NCBI GenBank assembly: GCA_963708295.1
Contig: CAVPSJ010000008.1
Span: 128,001-192,000, forward strand
Reading direction: 5' to 3'
DNA from: an uncultured delta proteobacterium
GTDB taxonomy: Bacteria > Desulfobacterota > BSN033 > UBA1163
DNA: 64,000 nucleotides
Shown here: piece after piece, positions 728-26,263 of the stretch
How the letters are laid out: each line of letters begins with the position of its first letter
Numbering within the stretch: position 1 is the stretch's first letter
Program-made: the position numbers and the translations under genes
Notes under the pieces: model-generated
Told to the model about the DNA's origin: nothing
What the model saw: the letters and a program-made list of their open reading frames with translations, nothing else
Database searches by the model: none

Positions 728-1763
<1,036 letters not shown>

Positions 1764-2958: not shown

Positions 2959-2974
2959 AATTTTTCCTCCTTCA

Positions 2975-7356: not shown

Positions 7357-8238
7357 TTATTCCAGAGGAATATCAACAGGCACATTGCCTTCCCTGATCG
7401 GTGGAACGATGGGGGGTTGCCCCGTTTTCTTCAAAATCTGCCGCCCTTCTGCAGAGAGCATCAGTTTGATGAAGTGATTCGCTGAAGTGATATTCTTTGC
7501 AGTACATGGAATTGTAGCCACGTTCCGGATATTTTCACTCAGGTTTACCTTTGCAGGAAATGAAATGATATCCGTTTCATCGGCAACCGTCACCGCGGCT
7601 GACAGATAGACGATACCGGCATCGGCCTTACCGCTTTTAACCGCTTTCAAAACATCAGGAATAGTTTCTTCCTTTACGGCCCTGTCTATTATCCTTTGCG
7701 ACACATCCGGCTTGCCTTCGGCTGCCGCTGCTCTTTTGATAAATTCAATCGTCCGGTTAGTGGCCATGTCTTTTTCACCGGTTACCCGCGCAAGCTTTAC
7801 CTCGTCCTTGATCAAATCGGTCATTTGCTTCACACCAAGTGGGTTGCCTTTTTTCGTGATAATCACCAGTTCATTGGCCGAAAATACGACGTACCAGGAT
7901 GCGGCGTCCTTGCTGCCGACCTTCTTGCCGAACATATTCTTAACCACCGCCGGATCGGAAGGTGCGAAGACGTCGCAGACATCCCCTTTGAGGATTCGCT
8001 CGGCCAGCTCTCTGGACCGACCGGAGGTAAGATTCACGATGATGCCGGGGTTTTTCCCCTCAAACGCTCTTTTCATTTCGTTCATCGGGCCAGCCAATGA
8101 ATCAGCATGCCACACCTCTAAAGTCATTTTTTCCCCTCCCGCATTTTGGGCAGCCGCCGCAGTTTGGCAGTACCCGGCCAATGCTACCATCAATACCAGT
8201 AAACCCAGGGAACAGAGGACTTTCGAGAACGAAGACAT
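7357..8238 (-). CDS. Molybdate/tungstate-type (ModA/WtpA-like) substrate-binding protein, orphan
   Basis: Signal peptide; HADSLAGP, SGRSRELA, DVFAPSD, FSANELVI, GKADAGIVY. No modBC genes nearby. Confidence 0.7.
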   Translation of the reverse strand: MSSFSKVLCSLGLLVLMVALAGYCQTAAAAQNAGGEKMTLEVWHADSLAGPMNEMKRAFEGKNPGIIVNLTSGRSRELAERILKGDVCDVFAPSDPAVVKNMFGKKVGSKDAASWYVVFSANELVIITKKGNPLGVKQMTDLIKDEVKLARVTGEKDMATNRTIEFIKRAAAAEGKPDVSQRIIDRAVKEETIPDVLKAVKSGKADAGIVYLSAAVTVADETDIISFPAKVNLSENIRNVATIPCTAKNITSANHFIKLMLSAEGRQILKKTGQPPIVPPIREGNVPVDIPLE

Positions 8239-8298: not shown

Positions 8299-9795
8299 CT
8301 AAAACAAGGCTCGGCGGACTCGGCCCCATGCAAGGGAAATCGCCGGCCAGAACAGCAGGAGGAGCCCGGCGGTCATAATCGCGCCGACAAGCCAGTTTGA
8401 AAAGAAAATACTCAATGCTCCCTGGGATCCCAATATGGCCTGGCGGAACGAAACTTCAGTCGGGTCTCCAAGCACTATGGCCAATATCAGAGGTGCCAAT
8501 GGATAATCCAGCTTTTTGAAGACATAACCGATAACGCCGAATGTCAGCATGACCCAGATGTTGAACATGGCATTGTTCACGGTGAAGGCGCCGATCGCAC
8601 ACACCACGACAATGACCGGGGCGATGATCGAAAAGGGGATGCGAAGGATCGCCGCGAATAGCGGCACGGTGGACAGAACGATGACCAGGCCGACGACGTT
8701 CGACAGATACATGCTGGCGATCAGGCCCCAGACAAAGTCCTTTTGCTCGATGAACAACAGCGGACCCGGCTGCAGCCCCCAGATCATCAGGCCGCCCAGC
8801 AGCACCGCTGCAGTGGCAGAGCCGGGGATGCCCAGCGCCATCATCGGCAGCAGCGCGGCGCAGCCGGACCCGTGGGCAGCAGTCTCGGGTGCAAGCACGC
8901 CTTCCAGTTCACCCTTGCCGAAATTGGCGCCATTTTTTGAAATGCGCTTAGCAAGGCCGTAGCTCATGAAGGATGCGGCTGTTGCACCGCCCGGTTTGAA
9001 ACCCATCCATGCACCGATGGCCATGCCTAAGAGCAGCGTCAGCCAGTACTTTGGTAGCTTTTTCCATGTTTGCCACACGACCTTCGGGTTGATCTTGGCG
9101 TGTACACCTTGGAATTTAAGACCCTCTTCCATGCTGACCAGGATTTCTCCGACGCCGAACAGGCCGATCACCACAACCAGGAAATCGACGCCCCGCAGCA
9201 GCTCGGACCAACCAAAGGTAAGGCGGAGCGTGCCGCTGACGTTATCCATGCCGATTTGGGCCACGCCAAAGCCGAGCATTAGGGAGGCGATGGTCTTGAA
9301 CGGGTCCTTGCCCGTGCCGATGAAACTGGCAAAGGTCAGAAAATAGACGGCAAAGAATTCCGGTGGACCGAATTTCAGCGCAAACTTTGCCACCAGCGGC
9401 GCAAGGAAGGTGATCATCAAAACGGAAAAAAGGGCGCCGAAGAACGATCCGGTGAAGGAGGCGGTGAGAGCTTCGCCGGCCCTGCCCTGCTGGGCCAGGG
9501 GGTAGCCGTCGAACGTGGTGGCCACCGAATGCGATTCACCGGGAATATTGAACAGGATCGAGGTAATGGCTCCTGCAAACAACGAGCCCCAATAGATACA
9601 CGATAACATGACGATTGCCGAGGTGGGAGACATAGTAAACGTGAGCGGCAGCAGGATGGCAACGCCGTTCGGCCCTCCCAAGCCCGGCAGCACGCCGACG
9701 ATTATTCCCAGTATAAGGCCGATCGCCATCATGCCGAGGTTATACCAGCTAAATATAAGCAAAAAACCATGGAATAGATTTGCCAGGTCCGCCAC
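8299..9795 (-). CDS. tctA: Tripartite tricarboxylate transporter large permease
   Basis: GVLPGLG, ILFNIPG, DGYPLA, GVLAPETAAH, LGIPGS, GLQPGP TctA signatures. Confidence 0.95.
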   Translation of the reverse strand: MADLANLFHGFLLIFSWYNLGMMAIGLILGIIVGVLPGLGGPNGVAILLPLTFTMSPTSAIVMLSCIYWGSLFAGAITSILFNIPGESHSVATTFDGYPLAQQGRAGEALTASFTGSFFGALFSVLMITFLAPLVAKFALKFGPPEFFAVYFLTFASFIGTGKDPFKTIASLMLGFGVAQIGMDNVSGTLRLTFGWSELLRGVDFLVVVIGLFGVGEILVSMEEGLKFQGVHAKINPKVVWQTWKKLPKYWLTLLLGMAIGAWMGFKPGGATAASFMSYGLAKRISKNGANFGKGELEGVLAPETAAHGSGCAALLPMMALGIPGSATAAVLLGGLMIWGLQPGPLLFIEQKDFVWGLIASMYLSNVVGLVIVLSTVPLFAAILRIPFSIIAPVIVVVCAIGAFTVNNAMFNIWVMLTFGVIGYVFKKLDYPLAPLILAIVLGDPTEVSFRQAILGSQGALSIFFSNWLVGAIMTAGLLLLFWPAISLAWGRVRRALF

Positions 9796-9961
9796 TTGAC
9801 AATCCTCCTAAACGGTAACGCTTTCAAAAATCGCATAGCGCATAGGGCCCTTCGATTTCACTCAGGGCAGGCGCCGCGCATGGCGTAAGAACTCAAAATA
9901 AAAGTTAAAAATTAAACCAGAGACTATTTCCATGATATCAGAGGGAATTGGTGAAAACCGC

Positions 9962-10477
9962 TTAATAACCGAACAGGGCTTCCAGCGGCCCCTTGGGCAG
10001 CGGAACCATGAACTGAATTTCAAACATCCAGAAAAGCATTATACTTATGCAGACGCTGACCAGGATGACTTTAAGCCAGCTGAACTTGGCCAGCGCCCGC
10101 ATGAAGCCCCCGATGAACACCGCGGAGGCGACATAGATGCCAATGAATTGGGTGACCAATACATAGAGAACAGCAGGTATCAGCACGTAAAGCACCATCT
10201 TGAAACGGTCCCAAGAAACGAAGAGTTCATGATTGCGGTGTTTGCCGAAAAGCGCCCTGAGTAAAATGACAACGCTTGAAATACTGATGATGGCCCCGGT
10301 GCGGAACGGAAAGTATCCAGCCTGAGGCCCTTCAGGGGCCCAACCCATCCCGATTCTCTGGCTGTCCATCATCATCACAACGCCGATGAGGAAGATGGCG
10401 ACTGCCACGATCACCTCCGCTGCCTGATAGGTCAACCGGACCGAACGAGGTCGTTCCTGCGTTTGTTTCTGTTCCAT
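9962..10477 (-). CDS. tctB: Tripartite tricarboxylate transporter small permease
   Basis: Four to five TM helices, GPQAGYFP, C-terminal VPLPKGP. Confidence 0.92.
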   Translation of the reverse strand: MEQKQTQERPRSVRLTYQAAEVIVAVAIFLIGVVMMMDSQRIGMGWAPEGPQAGYFPFRTGAIISISSVVILLRALFGKHRNHELFVSWDRFKMVLYVLIPAVLYVLVTQFIGIYVASAVFIGGFMRALAKFSWLKVILVSVCISIMLFWMFEIQFMVPLPKGPLEALFGY

Positions 10478-10568
10478 GCACTACCTCCCCTGACGAACGG
10501 AGAAACAGAGCCGGTCCGGCGGATCGGGCTACAGTACCCGGACCCGCCGGAGCCGGCGTGATTCTGAG

Positions 10569-11582
10569 CTATTTCTTCGCTGCAAACCCGGCTTCGGTCA
10601 TCAGCTGTACGTGTTTTGCCATATCTTTTTTCAGGAAGTCGACAAACTCGTCTCCGGTGGCATAGTGCCGCGTGAGCGCCATGTTCTCGGTGTATTCTTG
10701 CCACTCCGGTTTTGAAACTACCTGTTTCAGCAGATCGGCGTAGAACGCGACCTGTTCCTTGGTGGTTCCGGGTGGCAGGAAGAAGGCGCGCAGCATCTGG
10801 TATTGCACATCGATTCCCTGCGACTTGCAGGTGGGGATGTCGGACCATGCTATGTCCGCAATCTTTTTCTTATAGTCCATGGGCTTATCGGAGAAAACGC
10901 ACAAGGGGCGCGCCGTGCCGGCCCGCCACTGAGCAACGTTCTCGCTGGGGTTGTTGACATTGGAATCGATGTGTTTACCGGCCAGTTGGGTGGAAGCCTC
11001 GCCTCCGCTTTTATAGGGGATATAGATTATTTTTTTCCCGACAACTTTTTCGAGTGCAACATTGATGATCTGGTCTTCTCGCTTCGAGCCGGTGCCGCCC
11101 ATCTTGAAGGACCCCTCCGACGCCGCTTTTATGGCGTTGACATAGTCCTTCGCCGTCTTGTAGGGCGAATCTGAATGGACCCACAGGATAAAATCATCCA
11201 AAGCGATCATTGCCACGGGGTTGAAGTTTTCCCAGCCGAGCGGCAGACCCTGCGCGATCGGCAGGGTATAGATGAGGGAGAACGCAACCAGGAGTTTGTG
11301 GGGATCAGCCTTGGCCTCTTTGACCTCCATGGCGCCCTCGGCGCCGCTCGCGCCGCCCTTATTGAAGATCATAACGGGCTGTTTGATCAATTTGTGCTTC
11401 AGAATGATGCCCTGGATTGTGCGCGCCATCTGATCTGACGCACCGCCCGCGCCGGCGGGAACAATGAACTCCACCGGCTTGGTGGGTTCCCAAGCGGCGG
11501 CGCCAGAGGGTACCGTCGCGGCACCTGCCAGGACTACCGCAGCCATCAGGATACTGTACGATAACCTTCTAATCTGTCTCAT
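10569..11582 (-). CDS. tctC: Tripartite tricarboxylate transporter substrate-binding protein
   Basis: Signal peptide, WEPTKPVEFIVPAGAGGASDQMAR, YIPYKSGGE. Confidence 0.93.
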   Translation of the reverse strand: MRQIRRLSYSILMAAVVLAGAATVPSGAAAWEPTKPVEFIVPAGAGGASDQMARTIQGIILKHKLIKQPVMIFNKGGASGAEGAMEVKEAKADPHKLLVAFSLIYTLPIAQGLPLGWENFNPVAMIALDDFILWVHSDSPYKTAKDYVNAIKAASEGSFKMGGTGSKREDQIINVALEKVVGKKIIYIPYKSGGEASTQLAGKHIDSNVNNPSENVAQWRAGTARPLCVFSDKPMDYKKKIADIAWSDIPTCKSQGIDVQYQMLRAFFLPPGTTKEQVAFYADLLKQVVSKPEWQEYTENMALTRHYATGDEFVDFLKKDMAKHVQLMTEAGFAAKK

Positions 11583-11642: not shown

Positions 11643-12809
11643 TCAACGCGCGGCAAGGAAATCCATCGCCGCCATGACACCACCTTGTTTATAAGGCACG
11701 CCGGTCAGGGCAAACCCCATTTCCACCCCGCCCAGGGTCCCGATCAACATCAGGTCGTTGAAATCCCCCAGGTGGCCGATCCGAAAGACCCGATCCTTTA
11801 GTATTCCCAGACCGTTTCCCAGGGACATGTTGAACTTGTCAAGCACCGTCGCCCGGAATGCGTCCGCGCTGTGCCCCTCGGGCATCAGGACCGTCGTCAG
11901 GACCGGACTGTACTCTTCGGGGTTAAGACAGAGGATCGGAAGCTCCCAGGTCCGAACCGCCCGACGCGCGGCTTCGCCATGACGATGATGACGGTTGAAG
12001 ACGTTTTCGAGTTCTTCTTCCATCAGCATGCGGAGGGATTCCCTGAGGCCGTAGAGCAGATTGGTCGCCGGAGAGCTCGGGAAAAAGCCGTCCTTGTTGG
12101 CCGTGAACATCTCATCCCAGGACCAGTAGGATTTGATGAGACGGGCTTTTTTCGAAGCGGCAAGGGCCTTGGCGCTGACCGCGTTGAACCCGAGGCCGGG
12201 AGGAAGCATGAGCCCCTTCTGCGAGCAGCCGACTGTGACGTCTACCCCCCATTCGTCGTGGCGGTAGTCGATGGAGCCGAGGGAGGAGATCGTATCGATC
12301 ATGAAGAGCGCCGGATGGCCGGCCCGGTCAATGGCCTGACGCACCTCGGCGATTCGGCTCGTGACGCCAGTGGATGTTTCATTATGAACGACGGCAACCG
12401 CCTTAAAGGAGTGTTTTCGATCTTCGGTTAATTTCGATTCGACCACAGCGGGATCGACACCATGGCGCCAGTCCCCGGAAACGAAGTCAACCTCCAGCCC
12501 CAGGCGGATCGCCATATTCTTCCAGAGGGTGGCAAAGTGCCCCGTTTCGAACATCAGTACCTTGTCCCCGGGCGAGAGGGTGTTGACCAGGCTCGCCTCC
12601 CACGCGCCGGTTCCTGACGAGGCGAAGATCATGACGGGACCGGCCGTTTTGAACACGCCTTTGAGACCTTCAAACACCTCGCCGGCCAGCGCCTTGAACT
12701 CGGGTCCGCGGTGATCGATGGTCGGTTTGGCCATGGCCCGCAGGACCCGTTCAGGCACGTTCGTTGGCCCCGGAATCTGCAGGAAATGACGTCCACTCGG
12801 ATCTGACAT
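11643..12809 (-). CDS. Serine/alanine-glyoxylate aminotransferase (class V PLP enzyme)
   Basis: HFLQIPGPTNVP, SSGTGAWE, VHNETSTG, DTISS, CSQKGLMLPPGL (PLP Lys), FRIGHLG. Confidence 0.9.
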   Translation of the reverse strand: MSDPSGRHFLQIPGPTNVPERVLRAMAKPTIDHRGPEFKALAGEVFEGLKGVFKTAGPVMIFASSGTGAWEASLVNTLSPGDKVLMFETGHFATLWKNMAIRLGLEVDFVSGDWRHGVDPAVVESKLTEDRKHSFKAVAVVHNETSTGVTSRIAEVRQAIDRAGHPALFMIDTISSLGSIDYRHDEWGVDVTVGCSQKGLMLPPGLGFNAVSAKALAASKKARLIKSYWSWDEMFTANKDGFFPSSPATNLLYGLRESLRMLMEEELENVFNRHHRHGEAARRAVRTWELPILCLNPEEYSPVLTTVLMPEGHSADAFRATVLDKFNMSLGNGLGILKDRVFRIGHLGDFNDLMLIGTLGGVEMGFALTGVPYKQGGVMAAMDFLAAR

Positions 12810-13101: not shown

Positions 13102-13769
13102 TCACACGCCTTCTGCGACGTCCTTCCTGCCGGCCTTTTCTCCTTTCCGGATATTCTCAAGAAGCAATTCCGCCCGGACCGGATTGAAAACCCCGCACTC
13201 GCAGCACCTGGCCATGACCGTTGCAGCTTTTTTCGGCGTCAGTCTACGCAACTTGACATAGTCGATCATCTTCCTGATCAGGTTGAATGAAACCATGCCA
13301 TGGCCGCACATCGGAGTTAAATTCCAAGATTTCCCTTTCAGGCAAGCGGTCCGTTGCCCCCCAGAAACCGAGGGAATGCTCGACGCTGTGCCGCTGGATA
13401 CCGGCCTTCCGGCAGCACTCCTGCACCTCCTCCAGGAGTCCGCTGACGTTGATGGAGATTCCCAGGTCGGCCGCGATCAGTTCCTCCACCACCTTTTGGA
13501 GGCGTATCGAGGTCAGTGAAGACGGCGGCTGCCCCTGCGCCATCTTCCTGGTTGGCGATCAATTTCTCGATTTCAATGTCGTCCTGATGGATATTCCCCT
13601 GTTTGCCGTCCCCCATATTCACGGGGTGATATTTGAGGCAGATTCGCATGAATTCCCGAAGCTTCGGGGCAGACCCTTCACGGGTGATTCCCTTTGCCGT
13701 ATGGGCGAAGATGACGTAATCGTTTCTTAAGCTTTCCGCAGACCCTTGACGATGAAGGGTGTTGGTCAT
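13102..13769 (-). CDS. Uncharacterised Cys/His metal-binding protein, copy 2 (two frameshifts, near 13500 and 13315)
   Basis: Joining three ORFs gives MTNTLHR...HSVEHSLGFWG...MCGHGMV...CCECGVFN, colinear with 18873-19520. Confidence 0.75.
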
Positions 13770-13781
13770 GGGTTACCCTCC

Positions 13782-14582
13782 TTAAATAAGGGGCGGCCCA
13801 ATCCGATATTTGTTTTTCCGTTTGCCGAAAGTCGGTATCCGGCATTTCTTCACCCACTCCACATGGGGAATCGATCCATCTGGAAGGGCCCTAGATGCCG
13901 CCCCCACGCTGATCACCGTATCGATTTCTTTCTGGACATTTTCCAATGCCCGGAGAAACTCAGGTATCCGGTCGAGTCTCGTCTTAATTTCGATGATGGC
14001 GGAGAGGACCTTCTCGTTCAGAATCTCTTCTTTCATTTTCCCGGTTTCCGTATCGACCATCAGCTGGGTGACGGGGTTTTCCTTTTCGAAGTGGGGTTTG
14101 AGCTTGCGAGAGCCATGGCCACTTTCTCGATGTCTCGAGAAGAAAGCTCCGGTTCCGGGTCTTCCCATTTCGACGACAAGCCCCACGTCTCCCTGCGGAG
14201 CCTTCCGGTGACGTCGTTGCGTTTTGATCTCGTCTGTTCCGCGCCCCATGACCCCTGTGCCCGGATGAACCGTCGTAGGATCGCTGAAGACGGCCCGGAG
14301 ACTCCTCGGCCATTCGAGTTGGGGAAGGGTGAGGGCGCCTGTCGGACAGACATCGACCTCGGCAAGATAGTTAAGTCGAAAGAGGGAGAGCACTCTCCGG
14401 ATTCCCCGGACAAACCAGGGCGAATATCCTTCACTCCGGCATACCCGGTGGCAGGTATTGCATTCCACGCACTCCTCCTGATTGACAACGGACTTGCCGT
14501 CTTCATCCAGATAGATCACGCCCATGGTGCAGACTGCGTGACAGTTCCCGCAGCCCACGCATTTCTTCTTATCGATCTCCAT
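13782..14582 (-). CDS. Uncharacterised 2x[4Fe-4S] protein, copy 2 (compensating internal indels 14100-14225)
   Basis: CVGCGNCHAVC and CVECNTCHRVC..CP. GRGTDEIK; NDVTGR and RDIEKVAMALA lie in an alternate frame. Paralogue of 19517-20293. Confidence 0.78.
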   Translation of the reverse strand: MEIDKKKCVGCGNCHAVCTMGVIYLDEDGKSVVNQEECVECNTCHRVCRSEGYSPWFVRGIRRVLSLFRLNYLAEVDVCPTGALTLPQLEWPRSLRAVFSDPTTVHPGTGVMGRGTDEIKTQRRHRKAPQGDVGLVVEMGRPGTGAFFSRHRESGHGSRKLKPHFEKENPVTQLMVDTETGKMKEEILNEKVLSAIIEIKTRLDRIPEFLRALENVQKEIDTVISVGAASRALPDGSIPHVEWVKKCRIPTFGKRKNKYRIGPPLI

Positions 14583-14878: not shown

Positions 14879-16606
14879 TTACTTCTTCCAGGCGTATCCG
14901 GAAAGTCGATGTCCGGTCTCTATCCCGAGATCCTTAATCATGAGCGAAGCCTTTGCCCTGGCTTCCATTTTTTTATCCATGGGAATATGAAGCCCGGCGC
15001 CGAACCTCTCGCTGCACAATTGAGATAAGGTGCCCAGTGTCTTTGGGCTTCCAGTAATTGGAAGGGCAGGCCAGAAGTAGACCGGGATGCCCATTGCCAA
15101 CATGGCCATGGCTTCGGTTACCTCAGAACTTCTGTTGGCTTCCGCAAAACAGGCAAAGATCGGGTAATTTTTAAGGTCCTTTTTCCCGGCCGCTGCGATG
15201 CTCAAAAGGAAATCAGTGATCCCGCCATTCTCACTGCTTCCAAGGTCGATCACCGGAGGAATGTTTTTGCCGAGGGATGGAAGCAGTTCGGACAGCCCTT
15301 TCCCGGTTTCTTTCCCGTTCTTATCGGGATTCAGGAACCCGTACTTGGCAAGGGCGATGCTCGCTTCTCCTCCGGACAAGCAGAGAATGTCTTTCCTTAA
15401 GAGCTCTTCAACAATTGTAGCAATCTCTCTGTCCTGGGTGAACTTCACATTGCCGCTTCCCGAGAAGATCGCTATCCCTTTAATGCTCTTTCTTGTCAGA
15501 GCATCCAGGATCTTCTTCACGTTCAGATCGTCGGATGAAAAGCCCAACTGGGCAGATTCCCTGCTTTCAGGAATATCTCTCGACAAGACCTTTCGGAATT
15601 GAAAGGACTTCTTTGCCTTCTCAATAATTTCTCTGGCCATGGCATCGGGCTTCTGCTGCGGGTTCAGGCCTTCTGCCGGAACGATGGGGATCTCCCATTC
15701 CTTCGCGATCGCTGCGAGAGAGGGATTAACGAATTGGTCTCCGGCCACAATCAGGTCAACGGCACCGGTCATGAGGGGGATCTCCTGGGAACCGTAATTT
15801 GTCGCCGCGCCGAGCGAATAGGGCGGAAGCAAGGGATCCGTACAGACACCCAGAACGTTCACTTTCGCCTTCTTCGCTGCCTCAACGATTTTATACTTGA
15901 GAACGGGAGAGAAGTACCCGTACAGAAGGATGTTGGGCGCCCCCTTTTGCAGGATCCCGAGATTAACCTCCACCTTCGTGGGCGTCGAATCACCGAAGAC
16001 TGACTTTTTCAGCTTTCCGTGAATCCTCTGGGCCAGACAGGCCAGAAGTGAGACCCTGAAAGCCCAGAGAAGGATTTCTTCCACACCTGCGATTCCTCCC
16101 TCCAGCTTTCCGGAGGCTTTTAAGAGATCCTTGTTCAATCCTCTGGGAGAGACTCCCATCTCCTCCCAAAGGCGGATCAAAGCCCTTGGAAAATCTTTCT
16201 TCACCCCGTTTCCTCCATTCGCAAGGAGGTCCACTGTTTCTTTGAGAATCAGATCCGTTTCACCTTTCTTCTTCGGTTTGATTCCGCCGGACTCAACCCC
16301 TTCCTTAAAGCCGCTGACCTGGTCGAGGACGGCCATTGCCCCTTTCATGACAAGCCTTAACAGGGCCTGACTTGCCAGTATGTCTTTATCCTTGCCACAC
16401 ACTCCTGTCTTATTCGAATCCCGGAAGGGATGGCTGATACAGGGACCCTGGAGGCAGTCCCGGCAGCTCAACCCGGCTTCACAAAATCCGCATTCCGGAA
16501 GCTGACCTTCGAGACGGTCCCAGACCAGGGAAATCTCCCTGTCTGCGGCCTTTGGCAAGAAAGCTTCAATGGCGCTGTCAGCGGTCTTTTTCTGGATGAA
16601 CTCCAT
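14879..16606 (-). CDS. CooS/HCP-superfamily (Ni-CODH-like) protein lacking most C-cluster ligands
   Basis: CGFCEAGLSCRDCLQGPC...GVCG (D/B clusters), EVNLG, NILLYG, QEIPLMTGAVD, GIAIFSG, IPPVIDLGS. The CODH scaffold is recognisable but the active-site ligand positions are substituted. Confidence 0.85.
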   Translation of the reverse strand: MEFIQKKTADSAIEAFLPKAADREISLVWDRLEGQLPECGFCEAGLSCRDCLQGPCISHPFRDSNKTGVCGKDKDILASQALLRLVMKGAMAVLDQVSGFKEGVESGGIKPKKKGETDLILKETVDLLANGGNGVKKDFPRALIRLWEEMGVSPRGLNKDLLKASGKLEGGIAGVEEILLWAFRVSLLACLAQRIHGKLKKSVFGDSTPTKVEVNLGILQKGAPNILLYGYFSPVLKYKIVEAAKKAKVNVLGVCTDPLLPPYSLGAATNYGSQEIPLMTGAVDLIVAGDQFVNPSLAAIAKEWEIPIVPAEGLNPQQKPDAMAREIIEKAKKSFQFRKVLSRDIPESRESAQLGFSSDDLNVKKILDALTRKSIKGIAIFSGSGNVKFTQDREIATIVEELLRKDILCLSGGEASIALAKYGFLNPDKNGKETGKGLSELLPSLGKNIPPVIDLGSSENGGITDFLLSIAAAGKKDLKNYPIFACFAEANRSSEVTEAMAMLAMGIPVYFWPALPITGSPKTLGTLSQLCSERFGAGLHIPMDKKMEARAKASLMIKDLGIETGHRLSGYAWKK

Positions 16607-16671: not shown

Positions 16672-17148
16672 TCATCCTTTCACGGAACTAATGGGCTCAA
16701 AGGCCTTCTTCCGATAATCCTTCCGGTCTTCCAGCTGGATGGCCTTGGTCGGGCAGACCTCTGCGCAGATCGGATAGCCCATATTCCGGCAGCGGTCGCA
16801 TTTGATTGCCACTTTCATGGAAGACGAGGGATTGATAATGCCGAAGGGGCAGACCATGACGCACATCCAGCAGGCAATGCAGGTCGGCTCATGGACAAAG
16901 ACCAGTCCCGTCTCCGGGTCCCGGCGCATCGTCCCATTGGGACAGGCCTCGATACAGGGCGGATTTTCACAGTGCCGGCACTGGAGAGCGAAGTTTTTCC
17001 CCTCCACATGGACACGGGGCACCGGCTGCGGTTGCTCCTGGATCGCCCCATAGAGCTCTTTAGACAGGGACCCGATTTCTGTCCCGCACCAAAGCTCGCA
17101 CTGATGGCATCCTGTGCATTTATTCTTGTCCACCATTAGAAGTTTCAC
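16672..17148 (-). CDS. CooF/HydN-like four-cluster ferredoxin
   Basis: CTGCHQCELWC, CRHCENPPCIEACP, CIACWMCVMVCP, KCDRC...CAEVCP. Confidence 0.9.
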   Translation of the reverse strand: MKLLMVDKNKCTGCHQCELWCGTEIGSLSKELYGAIQEQPQPVPRVHVEGKNFALQCRHCENPPCIEACPNGTMRRDPETGLVFVHEPTCIACWMCVMVCPFGIINPSSSMKVAIKCDRCRNMGYPICAEVCPTKAIQLEDRKDYRKKAFEPISSVKG

Positions 17149-17194: not shown

Positions 17195-17332
17195 GAAAAT
17201 TCGAAATCCGAATATCGAAATCCGAAACAAATTCAAAACCCAAATATCCCAATGATCCAAACACGGTGATCTTGTTCTTGATTCTTATGAATTTGGTTTG
17301 TTTCGAATTTCGGATTTCGATATTCGAGTTTC
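17195..17332. repeat. 7-bp-period palindromic repeat (CGAAAT[CT]/ATTTCG family)
   Basis: AAATTCGAAATCCGAATATCGAAATCCGAAACAAAT ... TTTGTTTCGAATTTCGGATTTCGATATTCGAGTTT. Confidence 0.85.
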
Positions 17333-17341: not shown

Positions 17342-18649
17342 TTAGAGTCCCGTGTCCATGATCTCCTTGTATTCCGGTTCCATGAACCGGGTTGCATTCC
17401 TCCGGATCAGAGGAAGGAGATCTATAAAATTGAGACTGGGGCTCATCAACTTCGGGATGAATTCCGAGACATCGACCCTCTTCTTCAGGAGAATGGAGAA
17501 GAGACCCGCTTTCTGGGTCTGTCCGACCAGGATCGCCCCTATGATCCGGCCATTCTTCAAGATGAGTTTCCGGTACGTATCCTTCGTTCTCTTCCGGACC
17601 TCCTGAAATTGATCGCCGGGAGCGCACTCCGTGCAGACATCCGCATGGGTAACCCCCATGGAGATCGCAGGGATTCCAATGAAGTTTCCAATGGAGTTCC
17701 GCCGGTAGGAACCTTCGTAGGAAGTCTTCTTTCCGGCCATATTCAAACCGGCGATTCCCCCCTGTTCGAAGGCGCAAACCCAGATGGCATTGATGAAGTT
17801 GGCGTCCCGGGCGATATCGAAGGTTTCTACGACATCACCCGCCGCATAGATATCCGGGGAACTGGTCATCATCTCGCTGTCCACCTTGATGCCCCCGAGA
17901 GACCCGATCTCGATTCCCGCGTTCCGGGCAAGCTCGACAGCAGGCTTGATGCCAACGGAGAGAACGACCATGTCGCATTCGATTTCTCTCGAATCCGTCA
18001 CCACGCTCCGGACACGGCCATTCCCCGTAAACTGGACGGCCTTCTCTCCGGTGATCACTTCGATGCCAAGCTCCTCGACCCTTTTTTGAACGATGGATGC
18101 CGCCTCTTCGTCGAAGACCGTGGGCAAGACGTGGCCCAGCATTTCGAGGAGGGCGACCTTGATTCCCCTTCTCCTGAAGCTGATGCTCGATTCCACGCCG
18201 ATGCTTCCGGCTCCGATCACCACAGCCTTTTTTCCCGGAAAACGATAAATCCTTTCTGCGTCTTCCATGGTCTTCAGAGTGGAAATTCCCTCCTTATCGA
18301 CACCCGGAATGGGCGGGACAATGGGTTTTCCACCTGTTGCGATAAGAAGTTTGTCGAAAGAATAGTGGTTCCCGTCTCCGGTTCGGATCGATTTGGAGGC
18401 GGGGATCACTTCTTCCACCCGCGTTCCCAGATGAGGCGTCACATGGTTCACTTCGAAAAAGTCGGCTGTTCTGAAATTCAGCAGAGGCTTTGAAAGCTCC
18501 TCTGCCACGTAGTACGGGAGAAGTACCCTTGAAAAGAGGGGAGTGGCCTCATCGCTGAACAGGTCGATGGCTGAAGTCCGGTCAATGGATCGAATGGCCT
18601 CCACAGCGCTGATGGCCGCGGCGCTCCCTCCAATAATTACATATCGCAT
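17342..18649 (-). CDS. FAD-dependent pyridine nucleotide oxidoreductase (NirB/NADH-rubredoxin oxidoreductase-like, CODH-associated type)
   Basis: IIGGSAAA, LLIATGG, VIGAGSIG, TSSPDIYAAGD; also a CTEC motif near the C-terminus. Confidence 0.9.
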   Translation of the reverse strand: MRYVIIGGSAAAISAVEAIRSIDRTSAIDLFSDEATPLFSRVLLPYYVAEELSKPLLNFRTADFFEVNHVTPHLGTRVEEVIPASKSIRTGDGNHYSFDKLLIATGGKPIVPPIPGVDKEGISTLKTMEDAERIYRFPGKKAVVIGAGSIGVESSISFRRRGIKVALLEMLGHVLPTVFDEEAASIVQKRVEELGIEVITGEKAVQFTGNGRVRSVVTDSREIECDMVVLSVGIKPAVELARNAGIEIGSLGGIKVDSEMMTSSPDIYAAGDVVETFDIARDANFINAIWVCAFEQGGIAGLNMAGKKTSYEGSYRRNSIGNFIGIPAISMGVTHADVCTECAPGDQFQEVRKRTKDTYRKLILKNGRIIGAILVGQTQKAGLFSILLKKRVDVSEFIPKLMSPSLNFIDLLPLIRRNATRFMEPEYKEIMDTGL

Positions 18650-18675
18650 CGTTTTCTCCTTCCGATGAATTAGAG

Positions 18676-18815
18676 AAAATTCGAAATTCGAATATCGAAA
18701 TCCGAAACAAATCCAAAATCCAGAATTAAGTCCTTAAGAAGTTTCATCCGTAATGGTCATTGATGTTTCGAGCATTCGAGATTGTTTCGAGTTTCGAAAT
18801 TTGTGCTTCGGATTT
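18676..18815. repeat. 7-bp-period palindromic repeat (same family as 17195)
   Basis: AAATTCGAAATTCGAATATCGAAATCCGAAACAAAT ... ATTGTTTCGAGTTTCGAAATTTGTGCTTCGGATTT. Confidence 0.85.
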
Positions 18816-18872: not shown

Positions 18873-19520
18873 TTAGTACAGGCTATGGACCATATATAAA
18901 GGAAGCAATTTACGGAACATTTCTTTTCCCCGGGTCAGGTTATAGTTGCCGCAGGTGCAGCCTCTTGCCAATTCGAAACAGGCATCTTCTACTGTCCTCC
19001 GGCCCCGTTTTACATCCCGGACCATTTTGCGCACCAGGTCAGCAGCGATCATGGCGTGGCCGCACATGGTCACGGTTTCGAGAATCTGAAAATCAGGCAT
19101 CTTCTCGGTCTGCCCCCAGGTGCCAAGGGAATACTCCAGGGAGTGAATTCTTCCCATTCCTGCCTCGTCCATGCACTGCTGGACAACATCTGTCACGCCC
19201 GAAATGATGACCGAGATACCGGGCCGGTTCTCTTTCAAATCCTTCAGCAGGGAAACGATCTTTTCCCGGTTGTCGAAGGTGCACTGGACGATCGTTCCAT
19301 CCGTCACCCGGCTCAGAATATCGTCCATGGTGGTGTTGTAGATGTTTCCGGTCTTCATGTCGCCCAGATTGATGGGGCCATGCTTGTAACAGATGCTTAA
19401 GAACTTCCGCGTGTTTGGCGCTGAGCCCTTTTTGTTTACGCCCGTAGCCGGGCAGCCCAGGACCACGAAGTCCTCTTTCAGGCTCTCCCGATCACCCCTT
19501 CGATGCAGGCTGTGTGTCAT
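18873..19520 (-). CDS. Uncharacterised Cys/His metal-binding protein, copy 1
   Basis: Intact ORF with RBS and ATGA overlap with the upstream gene. MTHSLHR, QQC...HSLEYSLG, TMCGH, GCTCG. Confidence 0.85.
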   Translation of the reverse strand: MTHSLHRRGDRESLKEDFVVLGCPATGVNKKGSAPNTRKFLSICYKHGPINLGDMKTGNIYNTTMDDILSRVTDGTIVQCTFDNREKIVSLLKDLKENRPGISVIISGVTDVVQQCMDEAGMGRIHSLEYSLGTWGQTEKMPDFQILETVTMCGHAMIAADLVRKMVRDVKRGRRTVEDACFELARGCTCGNYNLTRGKEMFRKLLPLYMVHSLY

Positions 19521-20293
19521 GATCTCTCTCCTTCTATCTCATCAGCATAGAACTTGAATGCCGGCAATCCCAAGCCCAGGTTGTTTTTGCTATTGATGGA
19601 GTACCAGAGTCCCTCCTTTTCCAGAACCGGGACGATGGGGATTTCGCCCTCCGGCGGGACCTTTGTAATCACCTCGACCGTGAGGACGGAATCAATCTCC
19701 TTTGCCACCTTCTTCAGGACTCTCAATGCCTCCGGAAGTTTCTCCAGCTTGCATTTTCCTTCGATGATGGCTGAAGTTGCCTTTTCACCCAGGACCTCAT
19801 CCCGGAGCTTTCCTGTGCTCTTGTCCGACATGAAATGGGTGACAGGGTTCTCCATGGCCAGTTGGTATCCCAGGTCCGCAGCCATCAAAGCCATCGCCAC
19901 CTTTTCGACATCCCTGAAATAAGCTCCCACGCCGGGTCTTCCCAATTCAACACCCACGCCGACTTCGCCTGGGAGAAAAGTTCCTTTCACGTCGTTTGTC
20001 TTCATCTCCTCTGTTCCGCGGCCCGGCACCTGGGACCCTGCGAATTCGATGAAGGGGTTGCTCAGGATCCCGCGAACCTCCCTCGGCCACACCTCGTCTT
20101 GCTGGTAGAGGGCTTTCACAGGACAGACATCCGCCCTGAGACATTCGCCGCAATCGGTGCACCCGTCCTGATCGATCTCGATGTAAACCCGGCCATGGAT
20201 GGTATCGTGGCGCTTAAAGGTCTGAATCCTGCCCATCGGACAATAGGGGAAACATCTCTTGCAGGCGATACATTTATCGGGGTCTGCTTTCAT
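19517..20293 (-). CDS. Uncharacterised 2x[4Fe-4S] protein, copy 1
   Basis: CIACKRCFPYCP, CTDCGECLRADVCP, then GRGTEEMKTNDV, ELGRPGVG, ENPVT, KNNLGLG. Confidence 0.88.
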   Translation of the reverse strand: MKADPDKCIACKRCFPYCPMGRIQTFKRHDTIHGRVYIEIDQDGCTDCGECLRADVCPVKALYQQDEVWPREVRGILSNPFIEFAGSQVPGRGTEEMKTNDVKGTFLPGEVGVGVELGRPGVGAYFRDVEKVAMALMAADLGYQLAMENPVTHFMSDKSTGKLRDEVLGEKATSAIIEGKCKLEKLPEALRVLKKVAKEIDSVLTVEVITKVPPEGEIPIVPVLEKEGLWYSINSKNNLGLGLPAFKFYADEIEGERS

Positions 20294-20310: not shown

Positions 20311-20994
20311 TCATTGCTGCTCAAACATCGCTTTGAGCGCGTCCTCTTTGGCTTCACGGATGTGATCCCGCATCACCCGTTCACAAAGGTCCGGGTCCCT
20401 CAATCGCAAGGCCATCATGACTTTCCGGTGACCCTCCAGAGCCCTCTGCGCCCCCTCCAGATAGTGAAGGGTATCTTTCCGGTATCGCAACACATACCTT
20501 CGAATGTTTACAATCATGTCGTACAGCCGGCGCTTGTGGCCGACCAGGTTGTGCAGGGCGTCATGGAATTCCGTATTCCATTGGAATATCTCGTCGATTT
20601 TTTGCCGCTTCAGAGCGTCTTCGGCGTTTTCAATGAAACCGTTCAACTGTTTAAGGGTTTCTTCTGAGATCGATTCAGAAACGAGTCTCAGCGTGTAGCC
20701 CTCCAGGATGGCGCGGATATCGAACAATTCTTCCATCTCCTCTTTCGAATCCCTGGGGATAATAAATCCTCTTGTCTCAAGAGGCTGAATCAGCCCTTCC
20801 AGTTCCAGCTTATGAAGAGCTTCCCTCACCGGTGTACGGCTGACGCCAAGTTCTTCCGCCAGGTATTCCTCAGTGAGTCTACGGCCGGGATCGAAGGCGC
20901 CGGAGAGAATATTCGTTTTCAGATATTCGTACGTCTTCTTTCTTGCGGGAATGGAATTCTTTTTCGTGATCTGTGAAGAGGCCTGGTTGCTCAA
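20311..20994 (-). CDS. GntR-family regulator with FCD domain
   Basis: LAEELGVSRTPVREAL, NTEFHDAL, GHRKVM...MRDHI. Confidence 0.92.
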   Translation of the reverse strand: MSNQASSQITKKNSIPARKKTYEYLKTNILSGAFDPGRRLTEEYLAEELGVSRTPVREALHKLELEGLIQPLETRGFIIPRDSKEEMEELFDIRAILEGYTLRLVSESISEETLKQLNGFIENAEDALKRQKIDEIFQWNTEFHDALHNLVGHKRRLYDMIVNIRRYVLRYRKDTLHYLEGAQRALEGHRKVMMALRLRDPDLCERVMRDHIREAKEDALKAMFEQQ

Positions 20995-21825: not shown

Positions 21826-22243
21826 TTATTCACCTATGACATGGACCAGTATCTTTCTTTCTCTCTTCTTGTTGTCGAAATCGATGAAGACGATTTGCTG
21901 CCAGGTTCCCGAGAGCCAATTTCCCGTCGATCAGGGGGATCGTGAGTGACGGCTTCATCAAGGCCGCCCGTACATGGGAGAAACCATTGCCGTCTCCCCA
22001 GCGGCGGTCATGTTCATATGGGATATCGGATGGAGCGATCTCTTCAATCGCTTTTTGTAAATCTCTGAGCACCCCCGATTCATATTCAATGGTTGTCACG
22101 GAGCCTGTCGATCCGGGGCAGAATACGGTGACCAACCCGTTTTTGATTCCAGAACGGTCTGTCACGGCATCCACATCCTGGGTGATGTCCAGGATATCGG
22201 TGAAACCCTTTGTACGAAGACTAATTATTCCCGAATGAGTCAT
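21826..22243 (-). CDS. yjbQ: YjbQ/UPF0047 family protein, frameshift near 21905
   Basis: GSTGSVTTIEYE, YEHD...DGNGFSHVRAAL, LALG followed by frame-shifted TWQQIVFIDFD...VIGE*. Confidence 0.85.
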
Positions 22244-22369: not shown

Positions 22370-23119
22370 CTACTTGCTCTGGATTCTCTGAAGCACCTTC
22401 TTCCAGCTTTCGGTTTCAAGAAAGCTGCCCGAAGCATTGTCTAAGAGCTTTAGGAATACCGGGTAAGGCATGGCCAGGGTGAGAATTTCCTTCTCAAGCA
22501 TGGGTCTTGCAGAAACGTCGAACATTCCCAGGATCGCGTGGGGCTGCTCTTTTCCAGCTTCCTTCAAAGGATAGGTGAGAATCGTTCCACATCCGGACCC
22601 GAAGGGTGCAGAGACAGCGTCCGTGCGCTCCAGGGCATAGTTCGTCAATGTAAAAAGCCCTGAGAGAATATCCGGCGTTCCGAAAAAGACAACGACTTCC
22701 GGCACTGTATCCTTCTGAAACTGGTCGATCGGCTTGAAGACACAGTAGGCTGCCGGTGCTCTTCTCGGTATCAGTCTGGTGAAATATTCCTTGGCCCGTT
22801 CCGGTGTTTTGATGTATCGTTCGCCCTCCATTTCACCCGGGATCCCGCAGGAGAGAAAATATTCGATCTTGGGCCTTGGGGATGTAAAAAATCCCATATA
22901 GTAAGCCCCTCCAGGGCATCCAAAGTGTTCCTTGTCAAAATAGACGGTTGTCCCGTTCTTTCGGGCGCTCTGAAGCAGCCCCATCATACACCCGGATATT
23001 CCCTCTTTTGGCGTGAGTCCTTCAGGCTGATCGTTCGTGTAGTAAATTCCGAAGGGGGATTCCTTCAGCCCGAGAATTTCTTGAAATTGCTTCCATGTCT
23101 TTTCGGGGAGTAGATTCAT
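22370..23119 (-). CDS. DUF169 family protein
   Basis: CMMG, FGCPGGAYYMGF, GERYIKTPE, APFGSGC, GMFDVSAR. Confidence 0.75.
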   Translation of the reverse strand: MNLLPEKTWKQFQEILGLKESPFGIYYTNDQPEGLTPKEGISGCMMGLLQSARKNGTTVYFDKEHFGCPGGAYYMGFFTSPRPKIEYFLSCGIPGEMEGERYIKTPERAKEYFTRLIPRRAPAAYCVFKPIDQFQKDTVPEVVVFFGTPDILSGLFTLTNYALERTDAVSAPFGSGCGTILTYPLKEAGKEQPHAILGMFDVSARPMLEKEILTLAMPYPVFLKLLDNASGSFLETESWKKVLQRIQSK

Positions 23120-23394
23120 TGTATTAACCTCCATTTAGCTTTGTCCTTTCTTCTTAAAATACCCGAAGCTTCGGCCCAAAGTCAACACGTATTGACCTTT
23201 TACCATCTTCACTTCGGGCCGGAAGTGGGGGTTGGAAAACGCAAAGTTGATGTTCCGGTGGTTGCTGAAAAGCATTACAAGCTGGTAAATCCGGACGAAC
23301 TGACGGAAGAAGAATTGAAGGCTTACCGCAAGCGCCCTTCCGATTAAATTACTGCACTCCGAAGCTTCCCCATCGACAAGCAAAGTCCGCTCTG

Positions 23395-24976: not shown

Positions 24977-25468
24977 TTATTCCTGGGCGCATTCGGAGGG
25001 GTCGCCCTTTAATTTGGACAAAGCATGGGGAAGGGCAGGGAGAATCACGCTGAGGTTCTCTCTTACGCTCTTAGGACTTCCCGGCAAATTCACAATCAGG
25101 CTCGAACCTCGAATTCCCACGATGGCTCTGGAGATCATGGCGTGAGGGGTCTTCTTGAGGCTTTCGGCTCTCATGGCCTCGGCAAAACCAGGGACCTCTT
25201 TCTCAATCACCTTCGATGTTGCATCCGGCGTGACATCCCGTGGACTCAGCCCCGTTCCTCCTGTGGTCAGAATTAAATCTGCCTTCAAATGATCGGCACT
25301 CTTCTCAAGTGATTTGATGATCTCATCCATCTCGTCCGGTATAATTTCGTAGTGGATCACTTCAGCAGGAAGGCCCTTCACCATCTCTTGGATGAGAGGA
25401 CCGCTCGAGTCTTCCCGTTCCCCTTTGGAACCGCGGTCACTGATCGTTAGAATAACTACCTTGAACAT
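24977..25468 (-). CDS. mogA: Molybdopterin adenylyltransferase (MogA/MoaB)
   Basis: LTISDR, REDSSGP, IIPDE, TTGGTGLSPRDVTP, NLPGSP. Confidence 0.92.
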   Translation of the reverse strand: MFKVVILTISDRGSKGEREDSSGPLIQEMVKGLPAEVIHYEIIPDEMDEIIKSLEKSADHLKADLILTTGGTGLSPRDVTPDATSKVIEKEVPGFAEAMRAESLKKTPHAMISRAIVGIRGSSLIVNLPGSPKSVRENLSVILPALPHALSKLKGDPSECAQE

Positions 25469-25478
25469 ATTCAACCCT

Positions 25479-25775
25479 CAAATACGAAATCCGAATATCG
25501 GGCGAAGCGTCCGCCTCGGACCAATCCGAAACAAATTCGAATGGCCTAAACTCAAAACAAGGCCATACACAACGTAATAAAATGCAGTGAAGAGCGTCAT
25601 TCCCGCCCCGATTTCCATCGGGATAAACTCGGCGGGAATCTAGCAGAGAACACTGGATTCCGGGTCAAGCCCGGAATGACAAAAAGAATAAGATTTCTAT
25701 CGTCATGTTTGGAAGATTTGAATTTAGGATTTTGATATTGTTTCGTATTTCGAATTTCGTGCTTCGGATTTTTCG
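25479..25775. repeat. 7-bp-period palindromic repeat with nested insertions; the right arm overlaps the MOSC 3' end
   Basis: Left arm ACGAAATCCGAATATCG...CCGAAACAAAT; nested GTCATTCCCGC...GCGGGAATC...TGGATTCCGG...CCGGAATGAC (about 25596-25680); right arm TTGTTTCGTATTTCGAATTTCGTGCTTCGGATTT. Confidence 0.75.
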
Positions 25776-26215
25776 ATTATAATTTCGTCTCCAACTCCTA
25801 CTTCTCCTTCAGTGACCACCTCGGCAAAAATGCCTTCTTTGGGCATCACACAATCGCCTGCCTGGTAGTAGATGGCGCAGCGGGTATGGCATTCTTTTCC
25901 TATTTGGGTGACCCGCACCAGAACAGTCTCTCCGATGCGGATTTGCGTTCCTATCGGAAGATGGACAAGATCAACCCCTTCGGTGGTGATATTTTCCGCA
26001 AAATCGCCATACCCGACCTTTAACCCTTTGGCCCTCATCTTCTCAATCGACTCGTTTGCCAATAGACTGACCTGCCGGTGCCACGGGCCGCCATGGGCAT
26101 CGTCTTTCAATCCAAAGTCTTTCACGAGAAGACACGATTTGATATTCGTCTTTTTCGTTCCCTTTTTCTCACTGATGTTGACTGCGAGGACCTTTCCTCT
26201 TTGAGACCTATCCAT
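25724..26215 (-). CDS. MOSC domain protein
   Basis: AVNISEKKG, DAHGGPWHRQVSLL, GDFAENIT, TQIGKECH..C...GDCVMPKEGIF. Confidence 0.92.
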   Translation of the reverse strand: MDRSQRGKVLAVNISEKKGTKKTNIKSCLLVKDFGLKDDAHGGPWHRQVSLLANESIEKMRAKGLKVGYGDFAENITTEGVDLVHLPIGTQIRIGETVLVRVTQIGKECHTRCAIYYQAGDCVMPKEGIFAEVVTEGEVGVGDEIIIEKSEARNSKYETISKS

Positions 26216-26263
26216 TTGATCTCCCTTTGAGCTTTCAGCCTTCAGCTTTCAGCTCCTGCTTCG

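Follow-up and report, generated by a model that had tools for sequence, protein, structure and literature searches.

A conserved carbon monoxide dehydrogenase-fold protein with all C-cluster ligands replaced, encoded in a redox gene module of Thermodesulfobacteriota

In canonical carbon monoxide dehydrogenases (CODHs), the B-cluster lies between the D-cluster and the Ni-Fe-S C-cluster, and the presence of Ni-CODH genes in a genome or metagenome is taken as a sign of CO metabolism. Here we analyze a CODH-like gene (P0001; 14879..16606, minus strand) located in a stretch of 64,000 nucleotides from an uncultured delta proteobacterium (GenBank assembly GCA_963708295.1, contig CAVPSJ010000008.1, positions 128,001 to 192,000), which is hereafter called the window. 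The encoded protein of 575 amino acids (aa) has the CooS fold and keeps the B- and D-cluster motifs, and all of its C-cluster ligands are replaced. We consider it very likely, with a probability of about 0.9, that this protein is not a CO dehydrogenase and represents a conserved CODH-fold protein which keeps the B- and D-clusters only.

All 24 published structural groups of CODHs keep at least three C-terminal Cys residues of the C-cluster (Inoue 2019, PMC6344411, Table 2), whereas the family of the window protein (121 sequences including the query) has Ser, Glu/Asp/Gly, and a variable residue at these three positions. A later survey accepted into Ni-CODH clades A–H only those sequences whose four B-cluster Cys are all unmutated, along with the three C-terminal Cys of the C-cluster (Inoue 2022, PMC8776680); the window protein, with S384, E414, and S458 at the three C-terminal positions, falls outside these clades. 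Sequences mutated or gapped at cluster residues are filtered out in CODH surveys (PMC8776680; Böhm & Land 2026, PMC13056359). Among the noncanonical CODHs, which show weak or no CO activity, members of clades C, D, and G of Inoue et al. have replaced acid/base residues and a Tyr at the His93 position, the latter also being found in 83 of the 121 members of the window family. The CxxC-type D-cluster of the window protein corresponds to type III, which was assigned to Desulfovibrio vulgaris CooS (PMC6344411). Group G-1 has in common with the window family this type III D-cluster, a Thr at the first Cys position, a Tyr at the His position, and a genomic context of CooF and FAD/NAD(P) oxidoreductase (FNOR) genes, but it retains the remaining four Cys as well as the His and the Lys (PMC6344411). 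In our trees the family was not grouped with the type III, Thr-bearing representatives P0209 and P0218. CODH scaffolds have apparently been put to other uses elsewhere, as in the window family: repurposing of the scaffold has been argued for clade B RfCODH (PMC13592312), and clade D ChCODH-V is cited as lacking CO/CO2 activity (PMC13056359). No description of a C-cluster-less CODH lineage was found in the literature searched, which included Techtmann 2012 (PMC3328121), the supplementary tables of PMC6344411 and PMC8776680 being outside its scope. Both the CODH/HCP superfamily and scaffolds of pseudo-enzymes have been described before, but a selected, module-bound, C-cluster-free lineage is undescribed in that literature.

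To locate the cluster ligands, positions were counted in a phmmer alignment to the 636-aa CODH-II chain, and the codons were checked. The C-cluster ligands of CODH-II are H261, C295, C333, C446, C476, and C526, and the titles of PDB entries for mutants (C295D, K563A/H, H93A, and H96D) agree with the key residues considered here. None of these six ligands (one His and five Cys) is retained in the CODH-like protein, where H261 is replaced by Y231, C295 by T256, C333 by F292, C446 by S384, C476 by E414, and C526 by S458. The C294-C295 pair of CODH-II corresponds to C255-T256, a Cys being kept only at the C294 position. The acid/base Lys (K563) is replaced by S494, and the two His residues of the AAAHVDH motif in the alignment with CODH-IV face V93 and Q96. 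The codons of the former C-cluster and acid/base positions (Y231, C255-T256, F292, S384, E414, S458, and S494) span 15125..15916 on the minus strand. The first 91 residues align to CODH-II without gaps, and the numbering coincides there. Within this part, all four B-cluster Cys (C48, C51, C56, and C70) are kept; at the D site C39 is kept, G42 is replaced by C42, and C47 by S47, resulting in the CGFC motif of CxxC type. Together these D-cluster (Cys39/Cys42) and B-cluster residues occupy codons 39–70 (16397..16492, minus strand).

A previous reading of the window from the sequence alone (the sequence-only reading) had claimed that the B and D ligand motifs are intact, that the C-cluster positions are substituted, and that the catalytic Lys and the His relay are gone. 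The alignment with CooS which it had suggested as a check confirmed each of these substitutions (Y, T, F, S, E, and S at the six ligand positions), and the same pattern was observed in the 121 family members, which goes beyond a chance effect. It is thus supported, as judged from these alignments, that a canonical Ni-Fe-S C-cluster would not be held by the CODH-like protein, in which the B and D sites are kept.

Homology searches placed the protein within the CODHs. It matched the Pfam Prismane family (PF03063) with 170 bits (cut-off 27), and its sole NCBIfam match was TIGR01702, the equivalog for the anaerobic CODH catalytic subunit, whose score of 201.8 bits is below the cut-off of 478; no HCP model was matched in NCBIfam at E ≤ 0.01. 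All 36 matches in a PDB sequence search (E ≤ 0.001) were CODH chains, the best being 6elq (4.9e-56) and CODH-II 1su6 (4.9e-55), and no HCP chain was among them. The AlphaFold2 (AF2) model, built from an alignment of 92 rows, is confident (mean pLDDT 90.1, pTM 0.92), and its top Foldseek match was CODH-II 3i39 (TMq 0.92, E 1e-40), closely followed by DvCODH, CODH-IV, and AcsA; the TMq to 6b6w_B was 0.89. HCP belongs to the same Pfam superfamily (Prismane), and the HCP of this genome is encoded by a separate gene. The Glu at one former Cys position is reminiscent of the O-ligands of the HCP hybrid cluster. With canonical CooS (CODH-II, CODH-IV, and D. vulgaris CooS), the window protein shares the three-domain fold, the B-cluster Cys motif, and a CooF-type polyferredoxin as neighbor; on the other hand, it is only 25–28% identical to these proteins, all six C-cluster ligands as well as Lys563 and His93/96 are replaced, and no CooC-type gene is present in the window. 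The open reading frame (ORF) starts with ATG and contains no internal stop. The claim that it is intact and without indels holds for frameshifts and stops but not for indels, as the protein is approximately 60 residues shorter than CODH-II and the alignments are gapped. The expectation that standard annotation would wrongly call it a CODH was borne out only in part: in JGI the members of the family are named "carbon-monoxide dehydrogenase catalytic subunit," whereas in NCBI records they are named "hypothetical protein," which is consistent with the TIGR01702 score below cut-off.

To analyze the conservation of this protein, we searched 5.8 billion proteins. Among 7999 scored candidates, 722 homologs were detected at E ≤ 1e-10. 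The 120 matches listed, which together with the query make up the 121 sequences used for family counts, are all 570–580 aa long and 59–99% identical to the CODH-like protein, and those with named sources are from metagenome-assembled genomes (MAGs) of Thermodesulfobacteriota or "Deltaproteobacteria." In a library of representatives at 50% identity, the family formed one cluster (793 bits), and the next full-length relative scored 258 bits with 36% identity. In phylogenetic trees it forms a well-supported clade (100) with a long stem (1.05 in FastTree, 0.79 in IQ-TREE) outside the canonical CooS block. The same library contains 22 further representatives without C-cluster and D-cluster residues (443–553 aa); FastTree sets the family apart from these other C-less lineages, and IQ-TREE allows all of them on one side of a branch with a support of 23. 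Orthologs (>670 bits) were detected in 18 of 55 genomes of the order, in addition to one partial copy, and in 4 of 15 genomes of the genus.

Within the family, each of the four B-cluster Cys is present in all 121 members. At the D site, C39 is found in 121 and C42 in 114 members, the remaining seven having G42 together with C47; because of this covarying switch between two D-cluster motif types, the D site itself appears to be under selection. Residues 26–75, which include the B/D region, form the most conserved block (mean column identity 0.94–0.95). At the former C-cluster and acid/base positions, residues are non-Cys or variable. The H261 position is occupied by Tyr in 55, His in 23, and Ser and Pro in 16 members each, besides other residues; the C295 position by Thr (90) or Ser (30); the C333 position by Phe (89), Trp (12), or Tyr (11); the C446 position by Ser (119); the C476 position by Glu (98), Gly (15), or Asp (8); and the K563 position by Ser (95), Thr (17), or Ala (8). 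The C526 position is variable or gapped.

We then considered whether this gene is a former cooS drifting to loss. Twenty-seven related loci were found, and the MAGs containing them are without exception labelled Syntrophales, Syntrophaceae, Smithellaceae, Syntrophorhabdus, or "Deltaproteobacteria." Twenty-five of them (L007–L031) were examined by tblastn of the window proteins; L032 and L033 were left out, as a contig end leaves no more than the first 48 and 21 residues of the protein in them. Two of the 25 loci have broken copies, one stopping after residue 333 (L011) and the other matching in fragments (L031). Both records come from one MAG series, so sequencing error is as likely as decay. 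For the CODH-like gene, dN/dS (Nei–Gojobori, 12 pairs with dS < 2) ranges from 0.106 to 0.233, and its median of 0.16 is the highest in the operon (FNOR, 0.135; GntR, 0.117; aminotransferase, 0.105; Fer4_258, 0.075; g215, 0.055; CooF-like, 0.049). This rate and the two broken copies speak in favor of decay. On the other hand, dN/dS is low in all 12 unsaturated pairs, 23 of 24 genomic copies have intact ORFs (564–578 aa), the length of the listed homologs is uniform, the B-cluster Cys are invariant, and the predicted fold is confident, all of which make decay hardly credible. The CODH-like gene is under purifying selection and is not decaying; the estimate of dN/dS among orthologs, another check proposed with the sequence-only reading, gave no sign of relaxed selection, as neither values close to 1 among close pairs nor frequent stops were observed.

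A more serious alternative is that the scaffold catalyzes another reaction in or near the old C-cluster pocket, with electrons passing via B and D from the CooF-like protein and FNOR. Such a site might be cofactor-free or mono-metal (C255, S384, and E414) or might hold a new cluster (C255, C409, C486, and C531). Several residues of the pocket or specific to this family are strongly conserved, including C255 at the C294 position (120/121), S384 (119/121), C409 (121/121), C531 (119/121), C486 (107/121), and Glu or Asp at position 414 (106/121). In addition, the blocks around the old ligand loops stay conserved, the gene occupies the place of the catalytic subunit in CooS-CooF-FNOR clusters, beside the polyferredoxin gene, and RfCODH (PMC13592312) and ChCODH-V (PMC13056359) provide a precedent of reused scaffolds. 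However, position 231 (His261 of CODH-II) varies among Tyr, His, Ser, and Pro, 15 of 121 members have a Gly at position 414, and the residue at position 458 varies or is missing. A bulky aromatic residue occupies position 292 in 112 of 121 members, as if filling the cluster cavity. According to the predicted secondary structure, C409 and C486 would be on strands and C531 on a helix, which is more in keeping with packing of the core than with a ligand loop. The 480-aa relatives in the same module, described below, also lack these residues. Considering both sides, we regard a remodelled active site as rather unlikely.

The CODH-like gene is part of a row of genes on the minus strand. In the order of transcription, it comprises genes for a GntR/FCD-family regulator (20311..20994), which heads the row; Fer4_258 (19517..20293), with an N-terminal 2x[4Fe-4S] ferredoxin domain and a C-terminal part of ~190 aa; g215 (18873..19520), a protein of 215 aa with no recognized family or fold, whose gene overlaps that of Fer4_258 by 4 nt; FNOR (17342..18649), a PadH-like FAD/NAD(P) oxidoreductase of 435 aa; a CooF-like polyferredoxin of 158 aa with four Cys motifs of [4Fe-4S] type (16672..17148); the CODH-like protein; a paralogous pair of Fer4 (266 aa) and g215-like genes (13244..14582); a class-V aminotransferase closest to serine-glyoxylate aminotransferase (11643..12809); and TctC, TctB, and TctA of a tripartite tricarboxylate-type transporter (TTT; 8299..11582). 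The gaps are 223 nt between g215 and FNOR, 193 nt between FNOR and the CooF-like gene, and 65 nt between the latter and the CODH-like gene.

Comparative analysis of the 25 loci revealed that this arrangement is fixed. The CooF-like gene is directly upstream of the CODH-like gene in all 23 loci with an upstream flank (L009 and L012 have none). Where at least 2 kb of upstream sequence was available, FNOR was found in 20 of 21 loci, the exception (L011) giving no match that covers at least 50%; where at least 4.5 kb was available, Fer4_258 and g215 were found in 18 of 18. The aminotransferase gene adjoins downstream in 15 of the 25 loci, and the Tct and GntR genes are present in most of them. Identity to the window proteins is 69–89% for the neighbors and 50–66% for the CODH-like protein. 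Presence of g215 and of the CODH-like gene was concordant in 10 of 11 genomes of the same family, the eleventh being cut by a contig end.

The location of the gene also bears on a role as redox sensor or regulator, in which the B- and D-clusters would report redox or Fe-S state and modulate partner enzymes or GntR. Auxiliary or regulatory roles have been proposed for the noncanonical clades C and D (PMC13056359), the first gene of the operon encodes a regulator, and the CODH-like gene evolves faster than its partners. On the other hand, in every locus the gene lies inside the structural row, with the polyferredoxin gene on one side and the aminotransferase gene on the other, Pfam detected no DNA-binding or signalling domain in the protein, and a three-domain scaffold of 575 aa maintained at a dN/dS of 0.16 would be a costly sensor. 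Such a role appears unlikely.

The sequence-only reading had also offered that the protein is a partner for a catalytic CooS, which would mean a heterodimer with, or a chaperone for, a canonical CODH. CODHs are dimers bridged by the D-cluster, which is a point in favor of this idea, and the genome itself contains both a canonical CooS/AcsA and an HCP. In the assembly (4.95 Mb, 20 contigs, 91% complete), two further Prismane loci were detected. The canonical CooS/AcsA, with all ligand motifs including those of the C-cluster, is on another contig (C15:27136-28846; L002 and L003) in two frames (pieces of 471 and 243 aa), and the HCP gene (C4:455682-457237; L001 and L005) has one TAA near the N-terminus; either the frame break or the TAA could be an assembly error. 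A 315-aa ORF adjoining CooS/AcsA resembles, by eye, the small subunit of the corrinoid Fe-S protein, and the canonical gene is in an acetyl-CoA-pathway setting.

Several observations speak against a partnership. The CODH-like gene travels with conserved partners of its own and the canonical gene is on contig C15 beside the corrinoid-protein gene; a second CODH-type match beside the CODH-like gene was found in 0 of the 25 loci; and TIGR01702 gave no match over cut-off in any of five near-complete (97–98%) genomes carrying the ortholog. Moreover, the distribution of canonical-type matches differs from that of the ortholog (18 of 55 genomes of the order and one partial copy). We therefore abandon this part of the sequence-only reading, as a partnership with CooS is very improbable. 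Besides the ortholog, the five near-complete genomes gave only weak TIGR01702 matches (22–33 bits) to frames of 769–776 aa. One of these frames was inspected (in genome G037) and is a 772-aa Cdh-type gene with full ligands, which speaks against a general absence of CODH from the ortholog-bearing genomes. The claim that the window has no cooC was upheld: no CbiA/ParA-type (CooC) match was detected among 58 distinct window ORFs scanned with Pfam, a scan that left out shorter ORFs and the rest of the genome. A Ni-insertion accessory gene (CooC, CooJ, or CooT) near the CODH-like gene was thus not detected in these ORFs.

Two described systems resemble the operon. CooS-CooF-FNOR clusters, a proposed CO:NAD(P)+ oxidoreductase (PMC6344411), have the same trio of gene types side by side. 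Here, by contrast, the CODH member is predicted to be unable to oxidize CO, Fer4_258 and g215 are always part of the unit, and an aminotransferase and a TTT transporter are added in most loci with a downstream flank. The presence of the latter two genes beside the operon points to organic-acid metabolism. The second system is the tungsten enzymes AorABC and WorABCSL (8c0z and 9mqx), whose FAD/NAD subunit and four-cluster Fe-S subunit have homologs in the operon. FNOR is a full-length match (166.7 bits) to 8c0z_E (AorC, described as a potential subunit of aldehyde oxidoreductase). The best solved relatives of the CooF-like protein are 9mqx_E (81.7 bits), which is taken to be the Fe-S subunit WorS of the WorABCSL structure (PMC12318220), and 8c0z_C (AorA, 75.4 bits). 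In these enzymes a subunit with four clusters links the catalytic subunit electrically with a flavoprotein, a bifurcating module, or NAD (PMC12318220; for AorABC, 10.1101/2023.01.23.525143). Their tungstopterin subunit was not found in the operon, nor were AFOR_N or AFOR_C domains of AOR/WOR detected among the window ORFs scanned; instead, it is the CODH-like gene that stands beside the polyferredoxin gene.

The other partners are less familiar. The aminotransferase matched 6pk1, a serine-glyoxylate aminotransferase, with 344 bits, and the BhcA model with 419 bits, below its cut-off of 650. No match to g215 below E 0.01 was found in Pfam or NCBIfam and none in the PDB by protein or profile; its AF2 model (pLDDT 83.4) gave nothing in Foldseek at E ≤ 0.001, and the best Z in a wide VIA-align search was 4.5. 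Only unnamed Atlas clusters were matched, and all homologs are named "hypothetical protein." Nevertheless, g215 has the second-lowest dN/dS in the operon after the CooF-like gene, and its residues H6, C44, C116, H126, C153, H155, C188, and C190 are conserved, also in a 36%-identical paralog. The C-terminal CGH...CxCG pattern may represent a small Fe-S site. For Fer4_258, a Pfam scan of 27 members revealed no family in the C-terminal part beyond the ferredoxin domain. PDB matches covered the ferredoxin domain, besides short rows to designed PPR repeat proteins (residues 174–198), and in the Atlas only Fer4-named clusters were matched.

The most likely reading, modelled on the CooS-CooF-FNOR clusters and on AorABC-type wiring, is that the CODH-like protein relays electrons or acts as a scaffold within a multi-subunit, NAD(P)-linked Fe-S oxidoreductase encoded by the operon, with catalysis elsewhere (g215/Fer4_258); we would give it roughly even odds (about 0.5). 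The protein would then be a "pseudo-CODH," that is, a CooS fold which would not bind the Ni-Fe-S C-cluster and so would not interconvert CO and CO2, and in which selection would preserve the Fe-S relay of the scaffold. Each subunit would carry one [4Fe-4S] B-cluster, and a D-cluster would bridge the dimer, which is assumed to be a homodimer. The AorC-like flavoprotein would exchange electrons with NAD(P)(H), the CooF/AorA-like four-cluster polyferredoxin would wire it to the CODH-like protein, and the Fer4_258 and g215 pair may be the substrate-facing part. The substrate would probably be a small organic or amino acid, with TctABC as its putative importer, the serine-glyoxylate-type aminotransferase as the enzyme that may process it, and the GntR/FCD regulator as its putative sensor. 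The suggestion of a noncatalytic electron-transfer scaffold, made earlier from the sequence alone, is in this form plausible; it fits the invariant B/D Cys and the fixed operon with CooF/AorA-like and AorC-like partners.

Several findings weigh against this relay or scaffold role. A B-D-B' chain without C has no obvious terminus, and a function as "wire" would need a putative docking site for a partner. The CODH-like gene, at a dN/dS of 0.16, is the fastest evolving and least constrained in the operon. The near-invariant pocket residue C255, the family-specific C409, C486, and C531, and the conservation of S384 and E/D414 could point to a remaining function of the pocket. Finally, the Fer4/g215 pair is also found without a CODH-like neighbor. 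Of 401 genomes sampled from the phylum, 47 gave matches to the g215 profile, a single genome containing as many as 7 copies; ten contexts of such matches were fetched, and their ORFs were labelled by BLAST and Pfam. Five of these ten have a CODH-like gene adjacent to the Fer4/g215 pair.

One of the five (L040), in which g215 was placed by the profile search, is an ortholog of the window operon from a different family of this phylum. A 745-aa open frame in this locus was considered as a CooF-CODH-like fusion and rejected, as its upstream 170 residues are an out-of-frame read-through and not CooF. Three others (L036, L039, and L045) contain a CooF-like gene followed by a CODH-like gene of 480–489 aa (24–25% identical to that of the window), an FNOR-like gene, Fer4, and g215, and L038 contains AOR, Fer4, g215, PdxA-like, CooF-like, and CODH-like genes. 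The short (480–489 aa) CODH-like proteins keep the four B-cluster Cys, have Asp at the position of C39, and have a Cys at no C-cluster position. In the other five contexts, Fer4 and/or g215-like genes were found (both in L042, L043, and L044) with no CODH-like gene in the fetched span, L044 ending at a contig edge beside a partial FNOR. Their neighbors include TRAP and TTT transporters, PdxA-like dehydrogenases, AOR, a GlcD/CCG-type oxidase, a split TPP enzyme, and a family-III CoA-transferase. AOR genes adjoin Fer4/g215 pairs in L037 and L038.

A further-reaching reading, to which we give somewhat less than even odds, is that the CODH scaffold without its Ni-Fe-S cluster is a core subunit of an unrecognized family of NAD(P)-linked Fe-S oxidoreductase complexes. 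These would consist of a wire of AorA/CooF-like type, a flavoprotein of AorC-like type, the CODH-like protein, Fer4_258, and g215. The module is present in Thermodesulfobacteriota in at least two very divergent versions (575 aa with B and D; ~480 aa with B only), and it may act on imported organic or amino acids, with catalysis either in the g215/Fer4 pair or in a remodelled CODH pocket.

Since JGI names this family as CODH catalytic subunit, the potential for CO utilization in Syntrophales-type bacteria can be overcalled. Surveys that discard mutants of the C-cluster Cys leave a whole branch of the superfamily unexamined, with 722 homologs at E ≤ 1e-10 and orthologs in 18 of 55 genomes of the order. 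The family is also a natural experiment on what a CODH scaffold serves for without its catalytic cluster, and its five-gene module, including two proteins of unknown fold, provides access to a redox enzyme system, so far uncharacterized, of syntrophic anaerobes.

Parts of the CODH-like gene are covered by contigs from RNA libraries of four studies, with 1–6 differences per 150–260 nt (e.g., 224 nt with 2 differences, 153 with 1, 207 with 2, 151 with 1, and 187 with 2). They are a weak hint of expression, as DNA carry-over is possible, parts of the stretch have no cover, and absence, strand, and level are not readable from such contigs. RNA-library contigs accumulate, with loose ends, at a 48-nt A/T-rich repeat, two copies of which (17195-17242 and 18675-18722; 94% identical) are located in both long intergenic gaps of the operon. 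An inverted partner is present at 17297-17331, and a hairpin is possible. With up to 3 mismatches allowed, 28 copies of the 29-nt core of the repeat (13 forward, 15 reverse) were counted across the genome, versus 0 for a reversed control, indicating that the repeat is a dispersed REP-like element.

The g215-like copy in the paralogous pair is split over different frames at 13338-13769 and 13244-13543, and three pieces gave matches to the g215 profile. The split results from either a frameshift or an error in the assembly, and the pair is intact in L020. In other Thermodesulfobacteriota, the Fer4 and g215 pair is an expanded family with tandem arrays, and appears to comprise modules that are each specific for certain organic-acid substrates.

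Genes for MoaA, MoaC, MOSC, and MoaB/Mog-like proteins together with two molybdate/tungstate-type binding proteins flank the operon (24977-27835, minus strand; 28147-29139, plus strand; 7357-8238, minus strand), and such molybdenum cofactor (Moco) genes are also found upstream in L013 and L022. DUF169 (22370-23134, minus strand) and YjbQ/UPF0047 (21830-22243, minus strand) genes are located just upstream of GntR; among the 25 loci, DUF169 recurs upstream in five (L007, L010, L013, L019, and L022) and a YjbQ-like gene in four (L007, L022, L024, and L030). Subunit genes of a 2-oxoacid:ferredoxin oxidoreductase (TPP_enzyme_C, POR_N/PFOR_II, and POR; 1062-4056, minus strand) and a second GntR/FCD regulator (4284-4865, minus strand) are present at the low end of the window. 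Two adjacent genes of the phage-integrase family (379 and 356 aa, in slightly overlapping frames; 35837-37829, minus strand) represent a possible edge of a mobile element.

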